A stretch of 64,000 nucleotides of DNA from a virus (Duplodnaviria > Caudoviricetes), in IMG/VR virus record IMGVR_UViG_2864653697_000002; one strand, written 5' to 3'. Shown in pieces: positions 2,929 through 63,220 of the stretch. Position 1 is the first letter of the stretch. Every line of letters starts with the position of its first letter. The notes under the pieces were generated by a model. That model ran no database searches and was not told the DNA's origin. It saw nothing but the letters and a program-made list of their open reading frames with translations. A program made the translations under genes and the position numbers.

Positions 2929-3536
2929 GCGAGGCTTATGTCATCGCCATCGAAGGTTTCGCGTCGGATCGGCCGTTCGAAACTCTTCCCGCTGCAATCA
3001 AGACCGCAGCGCGTCGCGCCGTCAATCGCACGGCCGATCGCGCGCGAACCGATGCGGCGCGACGAATGCTGCAGCAGGTGAAGCTGCCGCCAAGCTACCT
3101 GCAACCATCGCAGGGCCGCCTCACCGTATCGAAGCGCGCCTCCGGCGACGACATGGAAGCCATCGTGACCGGACGGCAGCGTCCGACGAGCCTGGCTCGC
3201 TTCGCGCGCGGCAATGCACCTAGCAAGACCGGCGTATCGGTGGAAGTGGCGCCGGGTTTCGCCAGGTTCATGCGTCGCGCTTTTCTCATCCGCCTGCGCG
3301 CAGGTTCCGCTGATCTCGACACGAAGTCGAACCTCGGCCTCGCCATCCGCCTCAAGCCCGGAGAGAGGATCGAGAGCAAGCGCCAGATGATCCGCATGAA
3401 GGGGAATCTCTATCTCCTTTACGGCCCCAGCGTCGATCAATTGTTCAATACGATCCGCGAAGACATCGCGCCGGACACGCAGGATTTCCTCTCCGCAGAG
3501 TTCCTGCGGCTCGTCGAACTGGACGGTATCCAATGA
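2925..3536 (+). CDS. Tail completion protein (lambda gpZ-like)
   Basis: Basic protein with RAVNRTA and LYGPSVDQLF motifs; ATGA overlaps. Confidence 0.7.
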   Translation: MSEAYVIAIEGFASDRPFETLPAAIKTAARRAVNRTADRARTDAARRMLQQVKLPPSYLQPSQGRLTVSKRASGDDMEAIVTGRQRPTSLARFARGNAPSKTGVSVEVAPGFARFMRRAFLIRLRAGSADLDTKSNLGLAIRLKPGERIESKRQMIRMKGNLYLLYGPSVDQLFNTIREDIAPDTQDFLSAEFLRLVELDGIQ

Positions 3537-21416: not shown

Positions 21417-22645
21417 TAGATGAAGCCCTTCGCGAGTTCGCGACTCCGCGGCAGATCGAGTTCATCGACGCCATCAACAAGCACGGCAGCGCTGGCGCGG
21501 CCGAGCGCGCTCTTGAACTGAGCGACGGACTGATCAGAAAATCAATGCGGCGTCTCAAGGCGAACGCTGCGCGCAAAGGCTATGCGCCTGGTCACTGGGA
21601 AGGCGGCACAGCGCCCGGCTACCTGATGGGCAAGGTGACGGTCCATCGCACGCCAAAAGGCGTCGTTCAGCAGTGGGAGCGCCAGCATCCCGATCTCGAA
21701 CTATTCGAGCAGTTCAAGGAAGGCGTCAAGACCTTCATCGGCGACACCGTCGGCCCGATTGTCCCTGCGCCGCCGGTTGCCGGCCGGGATAATGATGTCA
21801 TCCCGTGGATCAACATCGGAGACGGCCACCTCGGCATGCTCGCCCACGAGGCAGAGACCGGCGCCAATTTCGATCTGAAGATCGCCGAGCGCGAACTCTG
21901 CGCCGCGATTTCGATCGCCGTTGACGATATGGTCCACCATGACCGCGCTGTCCTCCAGGACATGGGAGACATGACGCACTACGAGAATTTCTCCGGGACG
22001 ACGGAGGCCAGCGGCCACGCGCTGGACTATGATACCCGGTTTCCGAAGATGATCCGCGTCTACAGCCGCGTGATGCGCTTCATCATCGACAAGCTGCTCG
22101 AGAAGGTCAACACGCTCGACGTCATCATCAACCAGGGCAACCACAGTCGCACGAACGACATCTGGATGGCCGAGCTTGTCCGCGTCGCCTACGGTGCGAG
22201 CGGGCGCGTCAACGTGCTCGACAACGACAACAAATTCATTGCCTATCGCATGGGCAACACGTTCGTGATGTGCCATCACTCCGATAAGTGTCGCCCTGCG
22301 CAGCTCGCTCATGTCATGGCGACCGACTTCGCGCGCGACTGGGGCGAGTGCCAGTATCGCTACATCGATATTGGCCACATCCACCATAACATGGTGCTCA
22401 AGGAGCACCCGGGCGTCGTGATCGAGTCCTTCAACCAGTTGGCGAACAAGGATCTCTGGGCTCACGACGGCGGGTATCGATCCAGGCAGTGCCTGACGAT
22501 CATCAAGCGCAGCCGCACCTACGGCGATATCGGCCGGCGCATCATTCCTATCGGTGAAGTGCGGGACAGGATCGCAGCAGCCCATGCTGCCGTTGGTTCC
22601 GCCGCCCCCTATGTCCCAAAGGAGCGGCGGGCGTTCACCGTTTAA
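21413..22645 (+). CDS. HTH-fused calcineurin-like metallophosphoesterase
   Basis: GDGHLG, DMGDMTH, GNHS, HHSD and GHIHH metal motifs; N-terminal HTH-like segment. Confidence 0.75.
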   Translation: MIDEALREFATPRQIEFIDAINKHGSAGAAERALELSDGLIRKSMRRLKANAARKGYAPGHWEGGTAPGYLMGKVTVHRTPKGVVQQWERQHPDLELFEQFKEGVKTFIGDTVGPIVPAPPVAGRDNDVIPWINIGDGHLGMLAHEAETGANFDLKIAERELCAAISIAVDDMVHHDRAVLQDMGDMTHYENFSGTTEASGHALDYDTRFPKMIRVYSRVMRFIIDKLLEKVNTLDVIINQGNHSRTNDIWMAELVRVAYGASGRVNVLDNDNKFIAYRMGNTFVMCHHSDKCRPAQLAHVMATDFARDWGECQYRYIDIGHIHHNMVLKEHPGVVIESFNQLANKDLWAHDGGYRSRQCLTIIKRSRTYGDIGRRIIPIGEVRDRIAAAHAAVGSAAPYVPKERRAFTV

Positions 22646-22905
22646 GGCAGAACGTGTTCACCGAGTCTGTGGAAGAATGCGCGTTCCATCGGTCCGATCT
22701 GCCCGACCCTGGCTATCGCGTCAGCCACGAACGGAAGCATGATCGGGTGTCCGCTCACCCGCATGGCGATGACAAGTGCGTCAGCGCGGGATTTTCCCTC
22801 GAAAATGAGATCCTGCCCACTCTTGTCCGAAGGGGGCCAATAATTTATCAACCCCTCCCGGGAACGTTCTGCGAAGTAGGGTGTTTCCAGCTTAACTTGA
22901 TCCAT
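22642..22905 (-). CDS. Hypothetical protein
   Basis: 87 aa with RBS AGGA. Confidence 0.5.
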   Translation of the reverse strand: MDQVKLETPYFAERSREGLINYWPPSDKSGQDLIFEGKSRADALVIAMRVSGHPIMLPFVADAIARVGQIGPMERAFFHRLGEHVLP

Positions 22906-22943
22906 GATGCAGTCCTAAGTGCATTGGTTGGAGATGGTTTACG

Positions 22944-22978
22944 AAGACGTCACCCGCGGCAACGGGTGACGTCTTTTT
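22944..22978 (+). terminator. Rho-independent terminator
   Basis: AAGACGTCACCCG-CGGCAA-CGGGTGACGTCTT followed by TTT. Confidence 0.8.
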
Positions 22979-23017
22979 GCTGTCACATTAACCGGCCATG
23001 ATGTTGACCCCTCTCTT

Positions 23018-23046
23018 AAGACGCCGACTCGCGGCGTCTTTATTTG
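23018..23046 (+). terminator. Second rho-independent terminator
   Basis: AAGACGCCG-ACTCG-CGGCGTCTT followed by TATTT. Confidence 0.65.
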
Positions 23047-23056
23047 TGCCCCATAG

Positions 23057-23085
23057 TTGCACATGTCTTCCTAAAAAAGTAGAAA
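23057..23085 (+). promoter_or_regulatory. Candidate sigma70 promoter for the HTH gene
   Basis: TTGCAC-N17-TAGAAA in an AT-rich spacer. Confidence 0.45.
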
Positions 23086-23113
23086 TATCTGCGTCGCAAC
23101 GGGGGAATCCAGA

Positions 23114-23563
23114 ATGTATGCGTGGCTGATGCAGGGGGCGCAAACCGTCATAGCCGAGTGGATGAAGGCCTATCTGGCCAGATCCGGGAAAACTGCGAGC
23201 GAATGGTCCGCGTCCGCCGGCCTGCACAAGACGACCGTAAGCCGCGCGATGAAGGACGACTTCAACTCGGTCACGTCGATACCCACCCTGCACCGCCTCG
23301 CCTCCGCCGCAGGAATTCCTTCCGTGCTCGATTTTCTCAGAGCGCAGGCGGTGGAGCAGGAACTCCCCGATCTTACGATAGAATTGCTCAGAGAGACGCT
23401 GGCGATGCTCGGATGCACGCTTACCGATGCCGATTTCAACTGGCTTAGCACCGTGATGCTCTCGGCCAGGGCTATGATCGACAAGCTCGAGCCCGACATG
23501 CGTTCCAACCCGACCTTCAGAAAGGCCGTGCTGAAAGCCGTGGTCGAGAAGGCGAATCGATGA
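23114..23563 (+). CDS. XRE-like HTH regulator (moron-like)
   Basis: TASEWSASAGLHKTTVSRAM helix-turn-helix; own candidate promoter, opposite to flanking genes. Confidence 0.7.
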   Translation: MYAWLMQGAQTVIAEWMKAYLARSGKTASEWSASAGLHKTTVSRAMKDDFNSVTSIPTLHRLASAAGIPSVLDFLRAQAVEQELPDLTIELLRETLAMLGCTLTDADFNWLSTVMLSARAMIDKLEPDMRSNPTFRKAVLKAVVEKANR

Positions 23564-23577
23564 CATGGCCTGAGTTT

Positions 23578-23592
23578 GTTCTATTTTTGTTC
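23578..23592. promoter_or_regulatory. Alphaproteobacterial LexA (SOS) box
   Basis: GTTC-TATTTTT-GTTC, an exact GTTC-N7-GTTC in an AT-rich intergenic spacer. Confidence 0.65.
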
Positions 23593-23615
23593 CTGTAGGA
23601 AATAGGCTTTTTCAG

Positions 23616-24818
23616 CTAGACCAGAATATCGTCGAACTCCGACGACGCCCCCTCTCCCCCGATGATCTCGTCAAATTCGTAATCGAACGAGGTGAAAATA
23701 TCCCTGCAGGATATGCCGAATCTTTTTCGAATGTCAGTAACATATGTTAGATCAGCCTCCATCAGAATGCAGTCGAAGCCTTCCTCCTGCGCAGCGGCGC
23801 CGGTGGTTCCACTGCCAGCGAATGGGTCCAGGATCGTACCGCCCGGTGGCGTTACGAGGCGGCACAACCACTGCATGAGACGCTTCGGCTTCACTGTCGG
23901 ATGCTTTGATCCGGCGCGATCGGCTTTGCCTGCCTTGGCGTGGTAGAAGATCGGATTTGATTCGATCGATTCGACCAGTCCGAGTTCGATCATCATGTCG
24001 ATGTCGTCCTCGCTCAGCGGGAAGCCGTTGAAGAACCTGGCCGCGCTGCCGCTGTCGCCTCGCGGTTCCATCTCTGCGCCCGGCGCGCCGCGACGCATCT
24101 CGCCGTAGGTGTTCTGGTTCTCGCGGGACTCGCTGCTGCTGCTGCGTGCGAGTTGTCCCTTGGAGTCCGGAAACATCGCGACGACATCGGCCGAGCCGTC
24201 GTGAAGCAAGTTGGCTGGAATGCGTCCGACGCCACCGACCGTTTCGACTCGACAACCGTCGATATTTATTCCGCCAACTCCATGCTTGCACCAATTCGAC
24301 GTCCCGTTTTTCTCGCTGAACGCCCTCTGCGCAAAATAGATAGGCTCAAGCGCAGGCTTTGTGGCCTGCGCTCCGTACTGCCATCCATCGGCTGCCCCGA
24401 GTTGGAATTTGTGCCCCTTTGGCATTCCTGTTCCATAAACCCACCCAAAGAACGGATGCATGACGAAACCCGCCATCTCCATGGCGCAGGCCTGCCAGTG
24501 GCCGGTGCGCGGAGACGAGAAGGCCAGCACGTAGCCACCTGGCAGCAGGATATCGTAGATCAGCTTCCAGAACTCGGGGTCGCGCTCGATGCCGGACGCG
24601 TCCCACTGCTGGTTCATGAAGCCGCCGGACGCGCGCTTGAAAACGCCGGTCGGCCCGTTCGACTTGGCGGCAGCGCTGCCCTCCTTCCCGAACCGCTTGA
24701 CGGTCGAGACCAGACCATATGGCGGATCCGTGACGACAGAATGCACGCGCACACCCTGGTCGATCAGGCGACGCAAAGACTCGCGGTTGTCGCCTTCGTA
24801 AAGGGTGATGCTGCTCAT
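23616..24818 (-). CDS. Orphan amino (N6A/N4C) DNA methyltransferase, beta class
   Basis: VVTDPPYG; HPTVKP; ILDPFAGSGTTG. Confidence 0.92.
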   Translation of the reverse strand: MSSITLYEGDNRESLRRLIDQGVRVHSVVTDPPYGLVSTVKRFGKEGSAAAKSNGPTGVFKRASGGFMNQQWDASGIERDPEFWKLIYDILLPGGYVLAFSSPRTGHWQACAMEMAGFVMHPFFGWVYGTGMPKGHKFQLGAADGWQYGAQATKPALEPIYFAQRAFSEKNGTSNWCKHGVGGINIDGCRVETVGGVGRIPANLLHDGSADVVAMFPDSKGQLARSSSSESRENQNTYGEMRRGAPGAEMEPRGDSGSAARFFNGFPLSEDDIDMMIELGLVESIESNPIFYHAKAGKADRAGSKHPTVKPKRLMQWLCRLVTPPGGTILDPFAGSGTTGAAAQEEGFDCILMEADLTYVTDIRKRFGISCRDIFTSFDYEFDEIIGGEGASSEFDDILV

Positions 24819-25117
24819 CCGATCAGATCCTCGAATTCGGCGGAGGCGATCGCCTCTTCAATGTCGGTCTGCGCCGCGGCTCTGGGCGCAGAGGCGTAGC
24901 GGCGCTCCATGTCACGGGTCTTCCGCGCATCTTCCAGGAGCGCCTTGCGCAGCGCCTCGACCGGATCAGCGAACACCTTGCTGTCGGTCTGCCGCATCGC
25001 CTCAGTCGTATCCGCCGGGTAGTGGCAGACACTTGCCTGCCACCCGCCATTGTCACGAAAGAGCTGGATGTGCCCGTAAACCAGGGTGCATTCACGCAGC
25101 AGGGTTTCGAGGCTCAT
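24815..25117 (-). CDS. Hypothetical protein ending EFEDLIG
   Basis: ATGA-coupled to the methyltransferase. Confidence 0.6.
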   Translation of the reverse strand: MSLETLLRECTLVYGHIQLFRDNGGWQASVCHYPADTTEAMRQTDSKVFADPVEALRKALLEDARKTRDMERRYASAPRAAAQTDIEEAIASAEFEDLIG

Positions 25118-26090: not shown

Positions 26091-26870
26091 CTAAAATGTT
26101 GACACCCAGGTGTCGACAGCGACCAACAGGTCCGACAATCTGGATGTGTTGTAGAATTCGTCCATCCGGACGGCGTCGAGTTGCCCCTCCGAGGCATGGC
26201 CACTCGTGACCTGAGCGCCAGGGCGCACGATGCGCCACGGCTCTCCGCCGTGGTAGATCACCGCCGCCAGTTCGTTGGGGAAGCGCATATCGTCGATGAC
26301 GACATGGTGACCTTCGTCGCGGAGCCTCTGCGCCGCTGCCATAGTGATGTCGCTCCACAGCGACTGGCGGATCATCTCCCGTCCGAACTCGGTGCCGATC
26401 CGCTGCTGAAGCTGGCGGCATGTTATCGGCGCCGGGCCGAAAACGTGTCGGTGCAGAAAAACGCGGAACAACCTGGATATCTCGATCGTCGCAAACAGCA
26501 CTCCGGGGACGATATCGCTGCGCCCGGCGCCGTACATGCGTTCGACCACTTCGGCCGCGGTCATGCCGAGCGCATCGAGCAGGCCTTCGATCGCCATGTT
26601 GACTGCGCGATCAATATCCAACGGCCGGCCGCCGAGCCGATGCAAATCCGGGATCGGCTCTTCCTTGCGGTCGCCGTAGACCCGATCCCGGATTTCTTCG
26701 AGGGGTAAGATATCGAGCGATTCGAGCAGCCCCTCGGTCATCTGCTTGAGCGGCGTCGCAAAGGCGATGCGCTTGAAGCCGTGCCGCTCGACCAGTCGAT
26801 TGGCGAATGTCGTCTTCCCGCTGCCCATGGCGGTGGCGCAGAGCGCAACGAGGCGTGGTCCCCTAGTCAT
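26091..26870 (-). CDS. Deoxynucleoside monophosphate kinase
   Basis: MGSGKTT P-loop; FATPLK; RQLQQRIGTEFGR; IDDMRFPNE; HASE. Confidence 0.9.
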   Translation of the reverse strand: MTRGPRLVALCATAMGSGKTTFANRLVERHGFKRIAFATPLKQMTEGLLESLDILPLEEIRDRVYGDRKEEPIPDLHRLGGRPLDIDRAVNMAIEGLLDALGMTAAEVVERMYGAGRSDIVPGVLFATIEISRLFRVFLHRHVFGPAPITCRQLQQRIGTEFGREMIRQSLWSDITMAAAQRLRDEGHHVVIDDMRFPNELAAVIYHGGEPWRIVRPGAQVTSGHASEGQLDAVRMDEFYNTSRLSDLLVAVDTWVSTF

Positions 26871-27322
26871 CCGATCAGATCCTCGAAATCATCTTCGTCA
26901 TCGGCGGCAGGAGCGCCGCCGAGCAGTTCTTCGAATTCGTCGATCGCGGCCGGCGGAGGTTGCGGCGGCGCAGGAGCGTCGGGGGTCCAGCCATCGCGAA
27001 GCCGCTGCGCCCATAACTCCGTTTCCTCGTTGCGATATTTCGCAGCGGCTTCGCTCTCATAGGCGTTGAGCACGGCCTCGATCGGACTTCGCGCTTCGCC
27101 ATCGGCGACGTGATATGACCACCACTGGTCGCGCACCTTGCCGAGTGTGAAGGCCACCGCGCCATAGACGCGCGTTTTGCCCTTGCGCTCGACATGGTCG
27201 AAGAACAGGTCGCGCTTGCCGCACGCTCGATGGAAGTGTCGCCACGCCGGAACGCGCCGCGCCTCTTCGACAAGGGGGTCCACTTTCCAGAGCACTTCAG
27301 GTATCGTGGTGTATGGGCGCAC
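26867..27322 (-). CDS. Hypothetical protein ending DFEDLIG
   Basis: 151 aa with acidic tail; ATGA-coupled. Confidence 0.65.
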   Translation of the reverse strand: MRPYTTIPEVLWKVDPLVEEARRVPAWRHFHRACGKRDLFFDHVERKGKTRVYGAVAFTLGKVRDQWWSYHVADGEARSPIEAVLNAYESEAAAKYRNEETELWAQRLRDGWTPDAPAPPQPPPAAIDEFEELLGGAPAADDEDDFEDLIG

Positions 27323-48240: not shown

Positions 48241-48384
48241 TTCGAATCACTCCGTTTCCTTGTCCCTATTTGCTCTTAAATCTTAGCGCCTGTCAACATT
48301 GTAGTGACAGGACTGCGAGCTCCGAGCTGTGCCGGCTGCAGCTCTGCAGCGCCTGGCGCCTTGGGGACGCGTGAGCTGTGCGCC

Positions 48385-49100
48385 TCTTAGTGCGTTTGCG
48401 TGTCTGTGCGTGTCTGAGGGGTGGCGAGGTGGAGGCTTGGCGCCTTTGCGGCTTTGCGTGTCTGTGCGTGTCCTGACGTGTCTGTGCGTGTCATCGTGAA
48501 GGCTTTGGGTCTCTTAGCCCTGCCTCGCAGTGTCCTGACGTGTCTGTGCGTGTCTGTGCGTGTCTGAGGCTTTGCGCGCTCTTAAGAGTTAAGAGTTAAG
48601 AGAAAAGCCTTTTATCCTTTGATCTCAATGGCTTAAGGTACTATGCCGTCGACCGCGGCAAGGGCGGGGAGCGCTGAGCGCGATTCTCGCAAGGTTCCGG
48701 AGGTGCCGCTGAGACAAATGCACCTTTTGCTAAGATAAAATAGCCTGGCACGCACAGACACGTCAGTGGAATGGGTCATCTGAACAGGGTGCAACAGGTG
48801 AACAGCCTCTGAAAAAAGCTGTTCACCCTCAAACCCGCAGAAATCCTTGAGTTTGAACAGGTGAACAGGTGAACAGCTTTTCCTATAACTTCTCTACAGG
48901 GAGGGGTATTTTGAATAAGCCGTAAAGGCACGGCACTGGTAGACCTCAGAGGCGCGAAAAAAAAAACACCCCTGTAGAGAAGTTATAGGAATCGGCCAAA
49001 AAGCTGTTCATCCTGTTCACTTCGCCATAACACATTGATTTTACAGTTAAAAATCCGCACAGGGTGGGTGCACAGGGTGCGCACAGGGTTCCGACCCTGT
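48385..49100. repeat. Repeat-rich non-coding region, candidate replication origin and/or cos region
   Basis: GTGTCTGTGC iterations, (TTAAGAG)x3, GAACAGGT repeats, perfect 21-bp inverted repeat at 48881-48901 and 48970-48990, A-tract; next to the primase gene end. Confidence 0.7.
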
Positions 49101-49170
49101 TGCACCTCACGCGCAACGAGAAAGGGCGCCGATCGCTCGACGCCCTCTTCGGTTCAGATGCGGTGGAACA

Positions 49171-62297: not shown

Positions 62298-62993
62298 GTG
62301 GCGCGTGCTCGGACGGACGAAGGAACCTGGAAGAAGCTCAGGGATCCTGGATATGGGATCAGGCTCAGAGAAGCCTGTGACAATAGCCCGCATTGTCCGG
62401 ACGAGAACTACGGTCGCGGACCATGGCTGCAGGAGGAACTGAAGAAGCGCGACATCATCGCGAGCAGGGAGTCCATCAAGCGCTGGCTGCATGGCGAGGT
62501 GCGCCCTCGCGAAGCGAAGTCGGACGCGCTGGCCGATATTCTCGGCGTCGACCGCACATGGCTGTTCGTCGGCAACTACAACACCATCGCGCCGCGAGAT
62601 CGCAAGCAGTTGGCCTCATCCGCCTCCGGATATGTCAACATCGTTGCCGGGCTGATCCAGATCGATGGAAACTCGATCGCCTTTCCACAGACTGGCGACA
62701 AGAGGGCCGATCAGGAGAAGGTCGACTTCTACGCGATCATTCAGGGCGCCAACTACGCGATTCATGTCAGCGTCGGTGAAGCGCGAGAGGGCGGAACGAT
62801 GTTCCGGCTGCCGTCCAACAATAGCGAACTGATCGTCATCGGGCTTATCCGCGACGGCATGAACTTCACGCTCATCGATATCGACCAGGACACCATCGCC
62901 GAAGGGAACGCCCGCGGTAGCTGGGTGGAAGTGACGCTCGACGAGCAGGCCGTGAGCCGGCGCCGCCTTCAGAACTTCACCAAGCGCTTCTGA
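62298..62993 (+). CDS. XRE-family repressor-like regulator next to att
   Basis: SRESIKRWLHGEVRPR...LADILGVDRTWL HTH; no recognisable S24 peptidase. Confidence 0.75.
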   Translation: MARARTDEGTWKKLRDPGYGIRLREACDNSPHCPDENYGRGPWLQEELKKRDIIASRESIKRWLHGEVRPREAKSDALADILGVDRTWLFVGNYNTIAPRDRKQLASSASGYVNIVAGLIQIDGNSIAFPQTGDKRADQEKVDFYAIIQGANYAIHVSVGEAREGGTMFRLPSNNSELIVIGLIRDGMNFTLIDIDQDTIAEGNARGSWVEVTLDEQAVSRRRLQNFTKRF

Positions 62994-63096: not shown

Positions 63097-63220
63097 CTTC
63101 TTCTCTCGCAGGCCTTGGCCCGCGACTTTCCAGGCAGCAGATATCCCCCGCAAAAAGCACGTCGGCCCGCTGCGCCTTGAGCCCAGCGCCAGAGAGACGC
63201 CCCTCCCCGGCAACGCACCT

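Follow-up and report, generated by a model that had tools for sequence, protein, structure and literature searches.

A conserved LexA box behind a CI-type repressor gene in a sphingomonad prophage, and a possible SOS-controlled promoter antisense to that gene

What is an exact LexA box doing at the 3′ end of a phage gene, in the gap between two convergent genes, where it stands at the head of neither? This question is raised by a 64,000-nucleotide stretch of DNA (the window, by which we always mean the whole stretch) from a virus of the Caudoviricetes, IMG/VR record IMGVR_UViG_2864653697_000002, in which the direct repeat GTTC-N7-GTTC follows a gene for a helix-turn-helix (HTH) protein. The initial annotation of this DNA had suggested that SOS induction releases from this site a leftward transcript, antisense to the HTH gene. 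Here we show that the box is conserved among related phages, and that together with an adjoining element it forms a module homologous to the promoter of a small SOS peptide gene of sphingomonads. We favour, with modest confidence, a reading in which the module serves as a LexA-repressed leftward promoter (P_SOS) that would run antisense to the phage repressor gene and reach a gene for a protein of 87 amino acids (aa). The features on which the argument turns are these:

23578-23592, no strand: predicted LexA operator, an exact direct repeat GTTC-N7-GTTC as read on the + strand, which would lie across the spacer and −10 region of P_SOS.
23594-23602, − strand: putative upstream promoter element, TGTAGGAAA on the + strand and containing TCCTAC on the − strand, 2 nt from the box and unchanged in all six phage relatives.
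23564-23602, − strand: P_SOS, the putative promoter, made up of the upstream element, the LexA box and the distal half-site GAACAA.
23597-23619, no strand: degenerate inverted repeat of TAGGAA type, situated where the leftward early operon ends.
23114-23563, + strand: HTH gene, 149 aa, with a CI-type repressor domain and a helical C-terminal domain, and with no S24 peptidase.
23057-23085, + strand: promoter of the HTH gene (TTGCAC, 17 nt, TAGAAA), kept in four relatives.
23616-24818, − strand: DNA methylase, the last gene of the early operon (Pfam N6_N4_Mtase, E 2.8e-23).

The box was confirmed at the place where it had been reported, between two convergent gene ends; it lies inside a 52-bp gap that is bounded by the stop codon of the HTH gene (TGA, 23561-23563) and by the stop of the leftward methylase gene (23616). 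GTTC-N7-GTTC is the published LexA box of Caulobacter (PMC12700426), and its assignment to the alphaproteobacterial type holds for the present host, in which one exact box is found 20 bp upstream of lexA and another upstream of recA. The earlier estimate that about two bare motifs would occur by chance in 64 kb is also correct, since 1.9 are expected in the window; six are found there, and the complete genome holds 95 against the 85 or so that our arithmetic predicts. Host copies of the motif with A+T-rich spacers have flanking bases in common, and they adjoin genes of SOS type, among them an MmcB-like gene, an SRAP gene, two radical-SAM genes and S24 peptidases. With a scoring matrix made from 14 host SOS sites, the phage site being excluded, the phage box reaches 21.3 bits and ranks 14th in the 4.2-Mb genome, while the host's own boxes at recA (18.6 bits) and lexA (17.5 bits) both fall below it. 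The same matrix makes it the sole strong LexA-type site in the window; the five other copies all lie within coding sequence and score less than 14 bits each.

The absence of the motif from close relatives had been named beforehand as a possible refutation of its importance, and the motif turns out to be present in every one of them. Only four relatives of the HTH protein were found among 5.8 billion proteins, at 51-67% identity, and their contigs share a common order. An exonuclease gene of the late region comes first and is followed by a leftward gene that encodes 86-89 aa; next come two terminators for rightward transcripts, a TTGCAC/17 nt/TAGAAA promoter and the HTH gene, and last of all the 3′ end of an early operon that reads leftward and whose final gene varies from contig to contig. 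All five sequences (the window and the four relatives) have TGTTC-N6-TGTTC in the gap after the HTH gene, with differing spacers; an invariant TGTAGGAAA stands 1-2 nt further on, and behind it lies an inverted repeat of the TAGGAA type. Thus the position and orientation of the box are kept in five of five close sequences although the 7-nt spacer varies. The box is also kept in two distant relatives, those of G032 and G073, whose HTH homologues likewise lack S24. A DNA-level search of 60 relatives found little or nothing, as did scans of genome contigs and of viral contigs with the HTH alignment. The rank of the site and its conservation support its identification as a high-quality, conserved operator of the host type, to which host LexA would bind.

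As a direct repeat, the box is by itself without direction, and it is the adjoining element that suggests one. The 10-mer at this element is unique in the 4.2-Mb genome, and the idea that TGTAGGAAA might be an operator repeated across the phage, or a host repeat, was rejected on that ground. A composite of TGTTC-N6-TGTTC, a gap of 1-3 nt and TGTAGGAAA, in which the 9-mer was forced, was searched for in one genome per species, and 60 loci were found where our arithmetic expects about 13 for random sequence. About 54 of the 60 belong to Sphingomonadales and other Alphaproteobacteria, and at about 45 a hydrophobic peptide of 30 aa (alignment A5) is encoded by a gene that has a Shine-Dalgarno site and starts 20-36 nt past the box; on the strand of this gene the DNA reads TCCTAC, then the box, then the gene. 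The test was repeated without the forced 9-mer by using a profile of the peptide, which detects the gene in 48 of 301 genomes of Sphingomonadaceae, and 30 of the loci so found were fetched. TCCTAC occurs on the gene strand within 110 nt upstream at 25 of these 30 loci, against an expectation of 0.01 per locus, and GAAC-N7-GAAC with at most one mismatch at 23; at 18 of them TCCTAC precedes the box by 3-4 nt, the distance in the window being 2 nt. The recurrence of both parts at loci found by the peptide alone therefore identifies the module as the promoter of the SOS peptide gene.

These comparisons support the view that the phage module is a copy of the sphingomonad SOS peptide promoter, and that it is directed leftward, antisense to the HTH gene, because of the strand on which TCCTAC lies at the homologous promoters. 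What the phage copy lacks is the peptide gene, in whose place stands the antisense of the HTH gene; a search of the host chromosome for the 30-aa peptide gene found no copy either. The distal half-site, which is followed by AT or AA, is likely the −10 of P_SOS, and TTTCCT, 15-17 nt upstream of this putative −10, is the putative −35. The GAACAA variant of the half-site that the window carries is also present in genuine peptide promoters. In a related phage context in Sphingobium sp. MK2 (L070), the same module with its palindrome lies inside a co-directional early operon and stands at the head of a leftward gene, which encodes 90 aa and has a good Shine-Dalgarno site. A conserved rightward promoter at the box was considered as well and rejected, the spacing of its hexamers being inconsistent among relatives.

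The peptide gene deserves a description of its own. The 30-aa product (L038-L133, for example L039:7203-7350 and L104-L133), which some other Alphaproteobacteria also have, is a single hydrophobic helix that ends in a basic tail, and its gene has the look of an SOS gene, comparable to those of SidA or TisB, that annotation has missed. At many Sphingobium loci (L066:918-1253, L092:2491-2826 and about 20 others) the peptide gene has a divergent neighbour, which encodes a conserved protein of 111 aa without a Pfam family, and some genomes hold two copies; the 111-aa gene is probably LexA-controlled too, because it starts only 12-13 nt after TGTAGGAAA. The TCCTAC upstream element was not found in the literature that we searched, and no known protein suggests itself as its binder. 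The product of a peptide gene so widespread in the Sphingomonadaceae, with a conserved upstream element, might inhibit division as SidA does or act as a toxin as TisB does.

The inverted repeat beside the module is a phage-type feature, a clear palindrome in the relatives and absent from the host peptide loci, and it may act as a weak hairpin, an insulator or a second binding site. Elsewhere in the window TAGGAA is unremarkable. A second element of the host genome uses similar palindromes as CI/Cro operators: this mobile element (G000:C1:3866400-3867350; L025:566-1540) has an S24 CI-like repressor gene and a 61-aa cro-like gene, three TAGGA..TCCTA palindromic operators, and a top-ranked LexA box, which lies within the 3′ end of the cro-like gene. 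Within the window, a 16-nt repeat that ends in TAGGAA forms an inverted pair about 100 bp apart at 48880-49001, in the gene-free region 48241-49170.

What, then, is the gene across which P_SOS would fire? Its frame is taken as the real gene because its G+C content at third codon positions (GC3) is 0.77, compared with 0.53 for a 192-aa open frame on the opposite strand. The protein has no Pfam match, so that by Pfam it has no Peptidase_S24 itself, and its matches to PHROG families annotated as transcriptional repressor are weak. Its AlphaFold model is all-helical (predicted local distance difference test, pLDDT, 78), and the best folds in the PDB are those of Stl and SinR, both weak (E about 0.1, template-modelling score 0.4). 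With a family profile, remoter homologues were also found within the same family of bacteria. In one of them (G080, L098:1198-2181) the HTH domain is fused to a Peptidase_S24 (E 3.6e-15), as in the classical CI and LexA proteins that cleave themselves, and there is no LexA box nearby. The homologues of G032 and G073 have no S24, stand opposite Cro-like genes (HTH_3/HTH_31) and have a LexA box about 100 nt past their stop codons; in G032 the TGTAGGAAA element is present too. In the window the divergent partner of the HTH gene is the 87-aa gene and not a cro-like gene. To judge by its homologues and domain content, the HTH gene is a conserved CI-type repressor gene whose product is predicted not to cleave itself, and from this we infer that it is the immunity repressor. 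The initial annotation had called it a moron, a description that fails, since the HTH and 87-aa genes form a conserved module of this phage family and the domain is of the CI-repressor type. Its other statements about regulators fared better: the candidate promoter of the HTH gene, behind two terminators, is present and conserved in the relatives, and the regulator near the attachment site, said to lack an obvious autocleavage domain, proves to be a 231-aa protein without a Pfam match in which S24 is not detected. A possible operator of the HTH protein at its own promoter (TTGCACATGT) is not enriched in the window.

Two side observations belong here. The G080 homologue and the HTH gene of the window offer a comparison, set up by nature, of two versions of one repressor family, one self-cleaving and the other LexA-coupled. 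In G032 (L036:2130-2805) a second LexA box lies 25 nt before a gene for a GapR-FtsK-gamma fusion, and host LexA may directly repress the early operon of that prophage.

How far leftward a transcript from P_SOS might travel depends on what lies between it and the late genes, where three further features come into play:

22988-23566, − strand: antisense open frame of 192 aa, codon-aligned, with its ATG at 23566-23564; it spans the whole HTH gene.
22946-23047, + strand: two hairpins with T-runs, predicted to terminate rightward transcripts of the late operon, and conserved in relatives.
22642-22905, − strand: gene for an 87-aa protein, the first sense gene downstream of P_SOS, syntenic in all relatives.

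The two hairpins (22946-22973 and 23018-23040, the latter also flagged by a terminator scan) have T-runs on the + strand only, and in the fold of the − strand RNA they are without U-tracts. Between 23560 and 22905 neither a leftward terminator nor any further site resembling a leftward promoter came up in a crude scan or in the fold of the − strand RNA. Of the leftward antisense transcript first suggested, then, the orientation is supported, and its possible reach to 22642-22905 is plausible because nothing that resembles a leftward terminator or promoter intervenes.

The 87-aa protein is a candidate for an SOS-induced effector or antirepressor. Its homologues include one, from Sphingobium sp. 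SYK-6, that is 80% identical, and a profile search gathered 76 clusters, none of which has a Pfam family; the protein itself has no Pfam or PHROG family, no fold match in BFVD and no match in 400 sampled alphaproteobacterial genomes. The AlphaFold model is a three-helix bundle of low confidence (pLDDT 69), again with no fold match. A distant homologue in G388 (L031:1395-1728) lies in an island beside what by eye is an apparent tRNA gene; some 55 nt upstream of its start is a TTCCCTACA element, and no clear LexA box is seen.

The antisense frame was rejected as an ordinary gene on the composition given above, which is of the shadow-frame type. Its ATG lies 12 nt beyond the box in the window and 12-20 nt beyond it across the relatives, and the frame is open in all five sequences (the window, L011, L012, L013 and L015), the HTH genes being free of TTA, CTA and TCA codons. 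The joint chance of this openness is about 0.006-0.016 if the relatives are independent, which they are not fully. Codon bias, selection or a translated leader may account for it.

From this arrangement we infer the following course of events, in which the binding of LexA, the transcript, its reach and its effect on lysogeny are all read from the DNA. P_SOS would be a copy of the 30-aa peptide promoter, with TCCTAC, a gap of 2-4 nt and GAAC-N7-GAAC, the distal half of which is probably the −10. In the lysogen, host LexA would occupy the operator and keep P_SOS off, while the S24-less CI-like repressor would be made from its own insulated promoter, which is convergent with P_SOS at a distance of about 470 bp. 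Upon DNA damage LexA would cleave itself and P_SOS would fire leftward, sending RNA polymerase antisense through all of the repressor gene and the convergent promoter in front of it, so that repressor synthesis would be lowered by collision and by antisense RNA. The transcript would then pass the two hairpins, which are expected to stop rightward transcripts only, and express the 87-aa protein, the candidate antirepressor. During lytic growth, transcription that continues past the end of the early operon would act likewise, the methylase operon reading into P_SOS in the same leftward direction. We count in favour of this course of events that the box and TGTAGGAAA are kept behind the HTH gene despite differing neighbours, that the homologue fused to S24 has no box and, as a weak point, that the fold of the HTH protein recalls Stl and SinR, which partner proteins inactivate.

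Several facts weigh against the reading of an SOS promoter that reaches the 87-aa gene. The box lies about 660 nt upstream of that gene with the repressor gene between, and over such a distance Rho could cut an untranslated antisense leader; TTTCCT and GAACAA are poor sigma-70 matches, the assignment of the hexamers being a guess; the training sites of the scoring matrix were partly chosen for AT-rich spacers; four small S24-less homologues in one AT-rich genus have no exact box; and with a 231-aa regulator also present near attR, the master repressor may be a protein other than the HTH protein. Besides, Pfam, PHROG and fold searches found in the 87-aa protein no similarity to any known antirepressor. 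The distance and the want of resemblance would both be explained if P_SOS did point leftward and its output were non-coding antisense RNA and interference only, the 87-aa gene having a promoter of its own and being unrelated to induction. A weakly conserved −10-like hexamer, seen by eye on the − strand after the first hairpin in all relatives, might belong to such a promoter, and in colicin operons a promoter under LexA control is known to interfere with the convergent gene for immunity (PMC5001618). We regard this as possible and yet rather unlikely: no close relative departs from the strict synteny of the 87-aa gene, the HTH gene and the box, the crude scan sees no leftward promoter before it, and no leftward terminator separates it from P_SOS. 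The opposite extension, a nested antisense switch in which the leader is translated through the open frame and so protected from Rho, the 87-aa protein founds a new family of small antirepressors and TCCTAC is the site of a novel SOS factor, seems to us unlikely.

Other explanations take the box out of a leftward promoter altogether. A consensus scan flags a rightward pair, ATGACA and TATTTT, 16 nt apart at 23560-23587, and the box might control this promoter, from which antisense RNA or collision would work against the end of the early operon. Many host SOS sites do have a −10-like hexamer in the spacer and a gene downstream in the GTTC direction, and both G032 and G073 have a gene beyond the box in the direction of the HTH gene, so that the module may be rightward or bidirectional there, which also tells against P_SOS as we draw it. 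The spacing of the rightward hexamers, however, is 14-16 nt and not conserved, one relative has by eye no usable −10, and the genes on the right differ between relatives, which leaves no common antisense target; TCCTAC would be without a role, though it is invariant and marks leftward promoters elsewhere. On balance a rightward promoter is quite unlikely. LexA might instead bind without any promoter, as a roadblock or insulator against read-through from the early operon or the HTH gene in the lysogen, or as the anchor of a loop to other sites. The site does lie exactly at the junction of two transcription units that no strong terminator separates, and the adjacent TAGGAA-type palindrome could bind a second protein; but the window has no second strong LexA site with which to loop, and the module in its entirety shares homology with a genuine promoter, which makes this account improbable. 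That the box is a chance match without function, as the expected number of bare motifs would allow, is very improbable and already contradicted by conservation: the site ranks 14th in the genome, it is kept in seven related elements with varied spacers, and the 10-mer that adjoins it is unique.

The wider setting of the locus is that of a prophage of about 70 kb, which encloses the window (G000:C1:2058132-2122131 of a complete 4.2-Mb genome with 65.6% G+C). The host is a sphingomonad, as called from related sequences, which belong to Sphingobium, Erythrobacter, Novosphingobium and their kin. A tyrosine integrase gene lies about 7 kb to the left of the window, and host DNA begins again near 63200. 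The remaining regions are arranged as follows:

1-22645, + strand: head, tail and lysis genes and an exonuclease gene.
23616 to about 29145, − strand: early operon, with genes for the methylase, GapR, a deoxynucleoside monophosphate kinase and DUF7220.
To the right of the early operon: genes for a primase-helicase, a DNA polymerase and other replication functions.
62298-62993: gene for the 231-aa regulator near the right prophage end (attR), no Pfam match.

The relatives have genes other than the methylase at its position, and a comparison with a phage collection found only the exonuclease and the methylase in common. The methylase (23616-23645) and two proteins of 146 and 151 aa (24815-24840 and 26867-26890) have similar acidic C-termini of the type F-E/D-D-L/I-I/L, and the ThyX of L070 (about 2995-3024) also ends in such a tail. 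The proteins are mutually unrelated, and the tails may be a common docking motif of early proteins.

If confirmed, the arrangement would be a compact coupling of a non-cleavable phage repressor to the SOS signal of the host, in which a borrowed LexA promoter would have two uses, antisense transcription and interference over the repressor gene on the one hand and expression of a downstream effector on the other. The known range of LexA-dependent induction mechanisms would then take in the prophages of Alphaproteobacteria, which have been little studied, and it would become easier to predict which sphingomonad prophages are inducible by DNA damage.

Parts of this arrangement have counterparts in systems already described. 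In the Bacillus phage GIL01, LexA together with gp7 is the lysogeny repressor, and phage promoters are directly repressed by the LexA of the host. Such repression would find a parallel in the second box of G032, 25 nt before its GapR-type early gene, whereas the phage of the window encodes a CI-like repressor of its own and has one strong LexA site in the window. Stl of SaPIbov1 and SinR, whose partner is SinI, are repressors that a partner protein inactivates; the HTH protein resembles them in having an HTH_XRE-type domain at its N-terminus and a helical domain behind it, a likeness of weak fold matches that does not imply a partner interaction. Interference between convergent promoters is familiar from pR and pL of phages P2 and 186, and in colicin operons a LexA-controlled promoter acts against a convergent immunity gene (PMC5001618). 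As in these cases, two promoters stand face to face and one of them serves an immunity function, and as in the colicin operons the interfering promoter would be LexA-controlled; unlike in them, the promoters are about 470 bp apart and enclose the whole repressor gene, the setting is a sphingomonad prophage, and interference is what the layout would lead one to expect. SOS-induced small membrane peptides are represented by SidA of Caulobacter and by TisB and DinQ of Escherichia coli (PMC12700426, PMC4211646, PMC3567139). By its layout the sphingomonad gene for the single-helix hydrophobic peptide, directly behind GTTC-N7-GTTC, can be likened to sidA, while the phage, unlike all three, has the promoter without the peptide gene.

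Parallels are also offered by the LexA-controlled antirepressors, namely Tum of coliphage 186, AntC of N15 and the antirepressors of the Salmonella Gifsy phages (PMC3121763), and small antirepressor proteins provide a further precedent (bioRxiv 10.1101/2025.11.23.689978). In those phages, as would be the case here on the evidence of the DNA, the repressor lacks RecA-dependent self-cleavage and it is host LexA that holds in check a phage promoter whose product or transcript is proposed to disable immunity upon DNA damage. The differences lie in the parts and in their order: the operator here is the alphaproteobacterial direct repeat, and the 87-aa candidate effector has no similarity to Tum or Ant proteins. 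Where the LexA box of 186 tum or of the Gifsy phages directly precedes the antirepressor gene, here the repressor gene stands between the two, with the putative LexA promoter at its 3′ end, from where it would read antisense through the gene.

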